The notes under the pieces: generated by a model
Seen by the model: the letters and a program-made list of their open reading frames with translations, nothing else
Told to the model about the DNA's origin: nothing
The model's database searches: none
Assembly: GCA_963668695.2 (NCBI GenBank)
Contig: CAXXLQ010000004.1
Coordinates: forward strand, 2,656,001 to 2,720,000
Source of the DNA: Vicinamibacteria bacterium
Lineage (GTDB): Bacteria; Acidobacteriota; Vicinamibacteria; Marinacidobacterales; Marinacidobacteraceae
Length of the DNA stretch: 64,000 nucleotides
Reading direction: 5' to 3'
Shown here: piece by piece, positions 1,994 to 49,045 of the stretch
Layout of the letters: each line of letters begins with the position of its first letter
How positions within the stretch are numbered: the stretch's first letter is position 1
Translations under genes and position numbers: made by a program

Positions 1994-2244
1994 CAGCCTG
2001 TGGATAAAGTGGCGTGAGCGCCGAGAGCGGCGAGGCCCAGTTCTCCCGGTGGGGCCAGTTCTCCCGGTGGGGGCCCGGCTGACAAGGCGTGCGAGGGAGG
2101 AGCCCCCACCGGGAGAACTGGCCCGAGTGTCTTTCGACCGAAGCGCAACGATGAGCGACGGGAAACGGCGCGGTTCAGCCGGGATGGATCGCCGCTCGAG
2201 CCCCCACCGGGAGAACTGGGCCGCGGCACTTTGTTCACAGGTTG
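1994..2244 (+). mobile_element. MITE copy A (179-bp core enlarged by four micro-modules)
   Basis: Ends CAGCCTGTGGATAAAGTG / CACTTTGTTCACAGGTTG; internal GGCTGACAAGGCG..GAGGGAGGA..TTCGACCGAA.CGCAACG..GGTTCAGCCGGGATGGATCGCC shared with six other copies; begins right after the TAA of the upstream gene; flanks do not form a clean duplication. Confidence 0.85.
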
Positions 2245-2272
2245 CTCATTCCGGAATGCGTGCCAATACGCG

Positions 2273-3526
2273 ATGGATGTAGCCAGAGAGGGAGTCGCCG
2301 AGAATCGGCGCCGGCGGCGCCTTGTCTTCGGCGCGCTCGCGGGTGCCCTGTTCGTGGCGCTCGCCCTGTTCGCCCTCCGCTTGCAGCCGGCGGCCCCGAG
2401 CGTGGATCGGGAAACGGTTTTCATTGACACCGTACGTCGCGGAGAGATGTTGCTGACGGTGCGGGGACCGGGCACGCTGGTGCCGGTAGAGGTTCGGCGG
2501 ATCGCGGCGGGAAGCTCCGGGAGGGTCGCTCGCGTGCATGCGCTCCCCGGGGTCCGGGTGGAGTCCGATACGGTGATTCTGACGCTCGAGAATCAGAACC
2601 TGGCTCAAGAACTGACGGGGGCGGAGCTGGAACTCGCGGCCGCCGAGGCAAATCTGGACGACCGGCGAGTTCAGTTGCGCCGTCAGGTGCTGAATCAGCG
2701 ATCACTGCTCGCCTCGGTCGACGCGGAAGCCCGCCAGGCCGCCCTCGACGCGGAGGCGGACGCCGAGATCTACGCGGAGGGGATCATCGGCCGGATCGCT
2801 CTGGAAGACAGTCAAGACGCCGCTGCGGAACTCGGGACACGAGCTCGGCACGAAGCCGAACGACTTCGGCTCGCCGAAGCGGTGGCGGCGGCGGAGCTCG
2901 CGGCCGAAGAGGCGGGCGTCGCGCGACTCCGCGCCGTTTTCGAGCTGAAACGCGAACTCGTCTCACGGCTCGAGGTTCGCGCAGGAATTGCGGGCGTCCT
3001 TCAGGAGGTGTCTGCGGAGGCCGGCCAGCAGGTATCGGAGGGCGACAACCTCGCTCGGGTCGCCGAACCCGATCACCTGAAGGCGGAACTGAGAATCGCC
3101 GAAGTCCAGGCGAAGGACATCGAAATCGGGCAAACGGCGCGGGTGGACACCCGGAACGGAATCGTCGCCGGTCGCGTAACCCGAGTGGAGCCCACGGTCC
3201 GCGACGGCGCCGTGATCGTGGATGTGCAGTTGACCGATGACTTGCCGCGCGGAGCCCGTAGCGAACTCTCGGTAGATGGTCTCGTTGAGATTGAGAGCCT
3301 CGACGACGTGCTGCACGTGGGACGTCCCGCGTTCGGGCAGGAGGGGGAAGTGGTGGACCTGTTCCGGCTGGTTGCCGGCGGGGACCACGCGGTGCGGGTA
3401 CGGGTGCTCCTCGGCAAGGCTTCGGTCAACACCGTAGAGATCCGCGAGGGGCTGGCGGAGGGCGACACCGTGATCCTCTCCGACACCTCGGCCTGGGAGG
3501 GGCAGGACCGTATCCGTCTACGATGA
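2273..3526 (+). CDS. Efflux RND/HlyD-family periplasmic adaptor subunit
   Basis: N-terminal TM, VRGPGTLVP, coiled coil, lipoyl-like half motif (GQQVSEGDNLARV), GL.EGD.VI C-terminus; ATG at 2273 preferred because the ORF start at 2231 lies inside the MITE. Confidence 0.85.
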   Translation: MDVAREGVAENRRRRRLVFGALAGALFVALALFALRLQPAAPSVDRETVFIDTVRRGEMLLTVRGPGTLVPVEVRRIAAGSSGRVARVHALPGVRVESDTVILTLENQNLAQELTGAELELAAAEANLDDRRVQLRRQVLNQRSLLASVDAEARQAALDAEADAEIYAEGIIGRIALEDSQDAAAELGTRARHEAERLRLAEAVAAAELAAEEAGVARLRAVFELKRELVSRLEVRAGIAGVLQEVSAEAGQQVSEGDNLARVAEPDHLKAELRIAEVQAKDIEIGQTARVDTRNGIVAGRVTRVEPTVRDGAVIVDVQLTDDLPRGARSELSVDGLVEIESLDDVLHVGRPAFGQEGEVVDLFRLVAGGDHAVRVRVLLGKASVNTVEIREGLAEGDTVILSDTSAWEGQDRIRLR

Positions 3527-48613: not shown

Positions 48614-48811
48614 CGGCGGCGGTCCTCTCCTGGAGCGAAGGGTTGACGCTCGGGCGAATCGGTAGATCCTCATAGTGGACGATGTACGGCGACACCGCAA
48701 GCGGGTGACGGCATGATCGGGCGGCGGCGCGGGTTTCGGTATCGTCGGCTGGAATGCCGTCGGTGAATCTGACGCCCTGGATGACCCGGGGCAACTTCTC
48801 GTAGCCGTTAA

Positions 48812-49045
48812 CAGCCTGTGGTAAAACCCAAGCGGCGTTCGGCCGGCGATCCATCCCGGCTGAACCACTCCGCTTCGCTCCGTTCTGCGTTGCGTTTCGG
48901 TCGAAATACACCAGGTATTCCTCCCTCACGCGCCTTGTCAGCCGGGCCCCCACCGGGAGAACTGGCCCCACCGGGAGAACTGGGCCTCGCCCCCACCGGG
49001 AGAACTGGCCAACCTCGGCGCTCACCCGGGTTTCACCACAGGCTG
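48812..49045 (-). mobile_element. MITE copy F with three micro-modules
   Basis: TTAA-CAGCCTGTGG...CCACAGGCTG-TTCA; CCCACCGGGAGAACTGG three times at 48945-49010. Confidence 0.88.

Follow-up and report, generated by a model that had tools for sequence, protein, structure and literature searches.

A 20-nt sequence of Marinacidobacteraceae that probably behaves as a very small, non-autonomous mobile DNA unit in MITEs, REP-like hairpins and a transporter gene

Mobile DNA of about 20 nt is, to our knowledge, almost unstudied, the small dispersed repeats (SDRs) of Nostoc being the one described case. In 2008, Elhai et al. reportedly described SDRs of Nostocaceae with units of about 21-27 nt, and we know of no enzyme or mechanism assigned to them. 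In the descriptions given by citing papers, SDRs are high-copy, dispersed and considered mobile (PMC5861425, PMC4390886, PMC3116915, PMC2884548), are listed among short repeats of unknown origin (PMC3116915), and, in the case of SDR5, insert precisely between bases 3 and 4 of the HIP1 palindrome (PMC4390886, PMC5861425); by the account in one of these papers, no SDR-like repeat occurs outside Nostocaceae among the HIP1-rich cyanobacteria examined (PMC5861425). REPINs are described there as short repeats with RAYT transposases (PMC3116915). Here, we report on a 20-nt unit, CCAGTTCTCCCGGTGGGGGC, that recurs in a 64,000-nt stretch (C4:2656001-2720000, hereafter the window) of a Vicinamibacteria bacterium of the family Marinacidobacteraceae (genome G000; assembly of 4.10 Mb in 4 contigs, 67% G+C), where it sits in a miniature inverted-repeat transposable element (MITE) and in hairpins resembling repetitive extragenic palindromic (REP) sequences. 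Positions given without a contig name are those of the window.

We consider this motif to be probably a very small, non-autonomous mobile DNA unit with the 20-mer CCAGTTCTCCCGGTGGGGGC as its fixed form, which would make it one of the smallest mobile DNA units seen. The original prediction knew of no comparable named element, but the SDRs of Nostocaceae are comparable and are the nearest described kind, judged from the citing descriptions. Both have a unit of about 20 nt, a high copy number (here 1648) and a precise position in a short host sequence, the last likeness following from a left junction that is fixed after GC[CT]GG in REPs and at the MITE positions. They differ in that the host here belongs to Acidobacteriota, class Vicinamibacteria, rather than to cyanobacteria, and in that the present unit replaces 1-3 target bases, forms 18-nt tandems with itself, nests within itself and has as its hosts a MITE with terminal inverted repeats (TIRs) and REP hairpins. 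Independent insertion is argued by a copy in a transporter gene, by self-nesting, by differences between near-identical segments and by an occupancy of host sites nearly unlinked to the host backbone. The idea of a tiny insertion unit that parasitises structured repeats, put forward in the original prediction, is supported by independent breakpoints in unrelated hosts, self-nesting, polymorphism between near-identical segments and a polarised coding insertion.

The 17-mer CCAGTTCTCCCGGTGGG matched the window 11 times with at most two mismatches (0.01 expected; 0 of 100 shuffles reached 11), the matches starting at 2037, 2055, 2105, 2203, 6409, 16033, 24514, 45650, 48949, 48967 and 48992, and a twelfth site at 24411-24427 is a decayed copy with four mismatches; all of the roughly 12 sites first listed were correctly placed. 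Genome-wide, G000 holds 1648 copies with at most two mismatches (1296 exact, 275 with one and 77 with two), 837 on the plus and 811 on the minus strand, and plus and minus counts are about equal across all 20 chromosome bins, with no replichore strand bias. The match counts at zero to four mismatches (1296, 275, 77, 72 and 422), set against those of a reversed control pattern (0, 0, 0, 32 and 315), indicate that decayed copies are rare. The extended consensus reads GG(G/C)-CCAGTTCTCCCGGTGGGG-GC. Terminal units end in GC (1110), GT (95), GG (70) or CC (38), the GC ending making up 83% of those tallied (1110/1329, eight commonest endings), and tandems with an 18-nt period comprise 134 doubles, 2 triples, 1 quadruple and 1 quintuple. 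Per site, divergence from the consensus amounts to 1.5% in the unit and to 9.4% in the MITE backbone. It has no TIR and is no palindrome, its best fold being a weak 5-bp stem (-5.3 kcal/mol), and Rfam and tRNA scans of the window gave no matches.

That copies occur only inside other repeats, as originally claimed, is true of the window (three copies of one MITE hold eight, REP-like hairpins the other four) but not of the genome, since one exact copy lies in a gene, the one clear intragenic copy among the 1648. It stands in frame at C4:394436, 432 codons into a 1066-codon frame with a third-position G+C content (GC3) of 0.91, whose product is an AcrB-type resistance-nodulation-division (RND) transporter (ACR_tran, Pfam E 6e-100); a near-identical twin of this gene copy lies at C1:39964. 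The junction in both G000 and G001 is GAGCCCG-GCCCCCACCGGGAGAACTGG-CGGGAT, and the place of the 20-mer is taken by CG in the outgroup species G008, G014 and G009 and by TG in a fourth, G004; the rest aligns. With 2 nt out and 20 nt in, one codon became seven (A to GPHRENW), adding six codons in frame. The target site is the palindrome CCCG-CG-CGGG and has no homology to the repeats. The unit has inserted at least once into unique coding DNA, and this insertion postdates the split from G004 and G008 and predates that of G000 and G001. A binding tag spread by gene conversion, the alternative offered in the original prediction, does not explain an insertion without flanking homology. Two further copies with unique flanks give no polarity: one at C4:3267755 is old, common to G000, G001, G004 and G008, and adjoins a gene start, and one at C4:1898242 is intergenic, decayed and common to G000 and G001.

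The unit also occurs inside itself. Nested copies, in which a 13-nt head is followed by a full unit, number 59 in G018, a member of a different genus, and 1 in G023, with 0 in G000, G001, G004 and G019. In five of five nested copies read, the tail GGGGC follows the inner unit, and one is nested three deep. Replacement of the internal TG (CCCGG-TG-GGGGC), by the same rule as in the TTCACA-type REP, predicts this structure, as replacement of the terminal GC predicts the 18-nt tandems.

Differences in unit content were found between near-identical segments of the G000 assembly, namely C1 and C4:304-421 kb (~99.5% identity), C3 and C4:3505-3538 kb (97.6-99.7%), and C4:11-148 kb and C4:3780-3914 kb (~98.7%). 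These segments, which are probably co-assembled strain variants or redundant contig ends and fit the contamination estimate of 9.3%, gave about 275 kb of alignment (identity range 97.6-99.9%) with 41 indel rows of at least 6 nt. Eight of the 41 are clean unit-sized differences, each in the same MITE or REP (C1:44543, C1:94437, C3:12910, C3:19541, C3:19671, C4:11089, C4:46947 and C4:90727); units are also part of two other differences. C3:19541 and C3:19671 have flanks that match perfectly over more than 100 nt, with exactly ATA in one segment where the other has 21 nt. In one haplotype, the interior of a MITE is deleted between two direct units.

The main host is a MITE of ~185 bp with TIRs of ~20 bp that folds back on itself and whose target duplication looks like NTA or TA. 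A hidden Markov model (HMM) built from four empty window MITEs gave 898 matches, merged into 646 loci (459 full length) that make up about 3% of the G000 genome, and 1355 of the 1648 units lie inside MITE loci. The other 293 belong for the most part to REP-like hairpins or to 71-nt sub-repeats of the MITE end arranged in tandem. Such arrays of the MITE right-end segment, with one site-6 unit per repeat, are seen at C4:304419-304561, 879100-879171, 2230399-2230470 and elsewhere in G000. The MITE has moved recently, as orthologous places show: of its seven window copies, five (A, C, D/E and G) have no equivalent in G001 (93-97% identical) and mostly none in G004 and G008 either. A search for an autonomous parent among TIR pairs 0.6-6 kb apart gave no recurring element. 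Units in the left arm are mostly on the plus strand and those in the right arm mostly on the minus strand, which lengthens the fold-back; the filled copy A folds at -98.7 kcal/mol (z -11.4) versus -50.7 (z -3.6) for the empty copy B.

Occupancy of these MITEs is mosaic, with 106 patterns among the 459 full copies, 108 of which carry no unit. Of 118 MITE pairs with 0-1 backbone differences over 105 columns, 94 have unlike occupancy, as do about 93% of pairs at larger distances. Among 313 well-aligned copies, unit state and backbone variants at 4-10 nt have a mean r2 of 0.044, compared with 0.174 for backbone variants among themselves; linkage to unit state is seen only for the 1-2 bases that touch the unit (r2 0.24-0.94). 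Between sites, occupancy shows a weak positive correlation (r up to 0.38).

The unit occupies at least six discrete MITE positions, with rarer ones besides. Filled and empty MITE copies with identical 10-nt anchors on both sides gave the following junctions (numbers filled are for full MITEs):

Site 1, HMM position about 42-47, plus strand, about 150 filled: empty GG-N-GA, filled GG-unit18-GC-GA, net +19
Site 2, HMM position 52, plus strand, 155 filled, about 93 of these double: empty GC-GC-CC, filled GC-unit18-G(C/T)-CC, net +18
Site 3, HMM position about 81-91, minus strand, about 195 filled: empty G-TAT-TC, filled GG-unit18-GC-TC, net +18 (junction from 115 filled and 75 empty)
Site 4, HMM position about 129, plus strand, about 50 filled: empty CG-GC-GC, filled CG-unit18-GG-GC, net +18
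Site 6, HMM position 163, minus strand, 182 filled: empty GC-GT-TC, filled GC-unit18-GC-TC, net +18 (junction from 114 filled and 36 empty)

In REP hairpins, the unit always lies just 3' of GC[CT]GG in the 5' arm, on either strand, and replaces T or TG:

TTCAGA-type REP: 69 empty and 29 filled on one strand, 63 empty and 17 filled on the other
TTCACA-type REP: 46 empty and 9 filled on one strand, 43 empty and 4 filled on the other
REP2: 37 empty and 19 filled

The left end is fixed: it always begins with CCAG, immediately next to a G/C-rich end of the target (CGG, GGC or GCG). Each insertion costs the target 1-3 bases and duplicates none, for a net gain that is usually +18 and sometimes +19. 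The prediction of a 15-nt core between duplicated GGCC gives way to a 20-mer that replaces 1-3 bases; an apparent doubling of GGCC arises only where the target already reads GGCC, and its duplication at breakpoints is not general, target bases being lost instead. The last two bases arrive with the unit, since at site 2 GT is read at this place in 71 of 208 filled copies, compared with 2 of 303 empty ones. At site 3, the left flank CCAGG is present in 41 empty copies and in 0 of 247 filled ones, which points to a requirement for CGG at the left junction.

Copies and junctions show that the unit enters as a discrete block with a fixed left and a nearly fixed right end while 1-3 target bases are removed; its preferred targets lie in hairpin-forming repeats, so that most copies then multiply passively through MITE transposition and turnover of REP arrays. 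Insertion into itself yields tandems where the terminal GC is replaced and nested copies where the internal TG is. Because target bases are lost, cutting, trimming and joining (or cutting and copying) would fit better than staggered-cut transposition with target duplications; exact ends, base loss, absence of duplication and uniformity of copies likewise argue against both staggered cuts and random template switching. We infer an end-specific, trans-acting activity encoded elsewhere in these genomes, with existing copies or a master template as its source, that would be neither a RAYT/IS200-type Y1 transposase nor a canonical reverse transcriptase. Going further, we offer with considerable reserve the possibility of a hitherto undescribed insertion reaction that is end-specific, opens hairpin-exposed G/C-rich sites, removes 1-3 bases and installs a fixed 20-mer, possibly from a single master template, without known transposase, RAYT or reverse-transcriptase families. 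If this were true, the unit would be a hyper-parasite of MITEs and REPs, among the smallest self-propagating DNA units known, and the first such system with clean polarised junctions, one that could help to solve the same mechanism behind cyanobacterial SDRs.

Searches for the responsible gene covered several enzyme families. RAYT/IS200 Y1_Tnp (PF01797) was absent from G000, G004, G018 and G019, which hold 71-1571 units. The reverse transcriptase domain RVT_1 (PF00078) gave no match in G000 or in any of the 12 further members of the genus covered, and within the family the only match among 25 genomes is in one without units. IS110-type DEDD transposases are more frequent in several complete genomes rich in units; matches number 11 in G004, 10 each in G008 and G014, 5 in G009, 3 in G018 and 1 in G000, alongside 2 in G010 with its 16 units and 0 in the complete genome G019 with its 71. 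The sole IS110-family gene of G000 (C4:482336-483619) belongs to an element inserted in a REP hairpin stem (after GCCGACCGGAGGTC) that adjoins two unit-bearing REPs, has no link to a unit end and has nothing in common with the unit. The original prediction had looked to a master locus where the motif flanks a RAYT, IS110 or reverse-transcriptase gene; no such locus was found. As candidate master loci, the near-matches in G021 and G027 were rejected, since they look like chance hits in other DNA. The unit as the footprint of a larger, excised insertion sequence was also rejected: G000 has no lone half-units, and 9-11-mer counts are flat along the unit.

Several points weigh against reading the unit as mobile in its own right. 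No enzyme candidate stands among the families tested, and the search for a master or template locus gave none, the only copy in G020 sitting in MITE site 3. A large part of the copy number came along with the MITE, for example in the ordered TTC-TCC tandem that recurs 49 times, and short-tract gene conversion between MITE copies could explain part of the mosaic. Outgroups prove the polarity of one insertion only. The differences between near-identical segments could be either gains or losses, the outgroups having no MITE there: at these places G004 has none, and G008 has one nearby in opposite orientation that is not alignable as an orthologue. These segments, moreover, come from one metagenome-derived assembly with 9.3% estimated contamination and may be strain variants. 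Finally, occupancy was read from hmmalign alignments, in which units may be misplaced between sites 1 and 2.

Of the other explanations, one needs no dedicated machinery: host replication or repair, by template switching or microhomology-mediated patch repair, would paste the 20-mer from any copy as donor, the joins being guided by G/C microhomologies at the left (GG/GGC) and right (C/TC) junctions. The loss of target bases, a right junction that varies by 1-3 nt and left flanks that are always G/C-rich agree with it, as does the lack, among the transposase families tested, of one that clearly tracks the unit; the MITE interior deleted between direct units means that units do engage in illegitimate or homologous exchange. 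However, the left end is exact in every host class and 83% of terminal units end in GC, exactly the 20-mer entered the RND gene without donor flank although random template switching should often carry such flanks and move other sequences too, and eight clean events in about 275 kb amount to a very high turnover. We therefore regard this explanation as unlikely. Still less can be said for a unit devoid of any mobility of its own, carried at different places by MITE sub-families whose several masters, together with gene conversion, made the mosaic. Its appeal lies in the 1355 of 1648 copies within MITE loci, in the 49-fold recurrence of a fixed arrangement, in the recency of MITE insertions such as A, C, D/E and G and in the weak positive correlation between sites. 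It cannot, however, put the unit into the RND gene, into at least four unrelated REP types or inside itself, and it does not account for a unit state almost unlinked to variants 4-10 nt away where backbone variants are linked to one another. It is contradicted as the sole explanation and remains as a contributor to copy number.

We find it similarly improbable that the 20-mer is primarily a functional site (a protein-binding, uptake or recombination signal) kept and enriched by selection, with insertions secondary. The identity of the sequence across all 15 genomes of the genus and 4 of 6 other genera, copies 6-10 times more uniform than their hosts and the arm-biased orientation that lengthens the MITE fold-back would suit such a role. 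A spread from 8 to about 1570 copies within one genus is nevertheless unlike uptake sequences, the lack of replichore strand bias is unlike Chi or KOPS (FtsK-orienting polar sequences), a single clear intragenic copy and 108 of 459 MITEs without a unit do not favour it, and selection by itself does not give rise to the same 20-mer at new positions. The possibility of a library adapter or assembly error, which the original prediction had named as a refutation, is itself refuted: the unit is present in many independent assemblies from different projects, Logan contigs of four runs from four studies carry it, and the RND insertion is common to G000 and G001. Quasi-palindrome correction between the MITE arms was rejected, as many MITEs have a single unit and there is no complementarity between the flanks of sites 2 and 3.

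Regarded as a probable mobile unit, the 20-mer can be set beside other short repeats. The bacterial interspersed mosaic elements (BIMEs) of E. coli are short, highly repeated and intergenic and form mosaic arrays. REPs, REPINs and BIMEs share these traits with the unit, and REP-like hairpins host it here, but it is not palindromic and no Y1/RAYT gene was found in G000, G004, G018 or G019. Neisseria dRS3/NIME (Neisseria intergenic mosaic elements), pneumococcal BOX modules and insertion variants of ERIC (enterobacterial repetitive intergenic consensus) are short modules that recur in variable number in larger intergenic mosaic repeats; for none of these modules do we know of evidence that it enters unique DNA by itself and removes target bases. 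Rickettsia palindromic elements, of about 100-150 bp and palindromic, are tolerated as in-frame insertions in protein-coding genes; the unit resembles them in its in-frame gene insertion and differs in that 20 nt go in, 2 come out and six codons are gained. From MITEs, one of which is its own host, it is set apart by the lack of a TIR and by target bases that are lost rather than duplicated. The DNA uptake and uptake signal sequences (DUS/USS) differ in that the density of the unit is uneven (8 to about 1570 in the genus) with 1 clear intragenic copy of 1648, Chi and KOPS in that it has no strand bias along the chromosome, and retro-elements in that no RVT_1 was present in the 13 genomes of the genus searched.

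The system is a clean one, with exact rules for unit and junctions, a polarised gene insertion, self-nesting and ongoing polymorphism. It shows repeat families colonised by a second layer of smaller elements, which changes the reading of MITE and REP sub-families and mosaics, and a net gain of 18 nt can give a protein six codons with the frame intact. All 15 genomes of the genus contain the 17-mer (at most one mismatch), as do 4 of the family's 6 other genera, and in the two sister families 1 of 16 genomes has it, as a single near-match. Copy number within the genus ranges from 8 to about 1570. Set against a MITE marker, the units number 16/95 in G010, 8/31 in G012, 129/43 in G009, 93/28 in G014 and 1571/632 in G000, so that the load per MITE differs about 18-fold between sister species, a contrast that makes the responsible gene findable by comparative genomics.

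Public records with the 17-mer are titled Candidatus Marinacidobacterium, Vicinamibacteria or Acidobacteria bacterium, and runs containing the window stretch are mostly labelled sponge metagenomes. The Logan contigs of the four runs carry the unit at loose ends, with unique flanks at 100% in X15 and X18. Outside Acidobacteriota, one or two copies each were seen in Georgenia, Pseudarthrobacter, an Acidimicrobiaceae metagenome-assembled genome (MAG) and a MAG labelled Gammaproteobacteria. Those in the first three have unrelated sequence context and were taken as chance, as was the single match among viral contigs, also in unrelated context; in the last, two units (contig L073, positions 742 and 874) lie inside REPs typical of Marinacidobacteraceae, and the contig may be mis-binned. 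A literature search returned no paper on the 17-mer and none on 'Marinacidobacterium'.

Within the window, the unit copies and their hosts are as follows:

2037-2054, plus strand: 18-nt unit, the first of a tandem pair at site 2 of MITE A, with the next unit in place of its terminal GC
2055-2074, plus strand: second unit of the pair, a 20-mer, MITE A site 2
2102-2121, minus strand: unit, MITE A site 3, standing for ATA of the empty form
2200-2219, minus strand: unit, MITE A site 6, standing for AC of the empty form
6406-6425, minus strand: decayed unit with 2 mismatches, just 3' of GAACGCCGG in a REP-like element
16033-16052, plus strand: decayed unit with 2 mismatches, TTCAGC-type REP hairpin
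24408-24427, minus strand: strongly decayed unit with 4 mismatches, REP hairpin
24511-24530, minus strand: unit of the TCC variant, TTCAGA-type REP hairpin, just after GCGCCGG
45650-45669, plus strand: unit, MITE E site 3
48946-48965, minus strand: second unit of a tandem pair, MITE F site 2
48966-48983, minus strand: first unit of the pair (18 nt), MITE F site 2
48989-49008, minus strand: unit, MITE F site 1
1992-2245, plus strand: MITE copy A, 4 units; the whole copy is absent here in G001, G004 and G008
33185-33375, plus strand: MITE copy B, every site empty
40672-40857, plus strand: MITE copy C, empty; absent in G001
45087-45280, minus strand: MITE copy D, empty
45560-45750, minus strand: MITE copy E, truncated, 1 unit
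48806-49050, minus strand: MITE copy F, 3 units
57641-57815, minus strand: MITE copy G, empty; absent in G001, G004 and G008
6209-6249, plus strand: empty REP-like hairpin GCCGGTGTTCACACCGGC, target form of the TTCACA type

Empty host sites, which the original prediction had also placed in the window, are indeed there, in MITE copies B, C, D and G and in the REPs at 6209-6249, 15939-15985 and 23602-23642. The intergenic REP-like arrays at 6210-6440, 15880-16083 and 23593-24563 are wholly different between species with 90-97% identical flanking genes, and REP arrays could not be aligned between species at this genome identity (90-97%). Two 300-nt stretches, 44364-44663 and 49500-49799, are 100% identical, lie 5136 nt apart on either side of the MITE cluster and may be a local duplication, and G001, with 131 nt at that place, lacks a counterpart of the segment 48644-50558. 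Between MITE copies D and E, a 90-nt repeat stands in three tandem copies (45303-45573), and one X1 Logan contig joins 45054 to 46015, the D-E cluster being missing in that sample.

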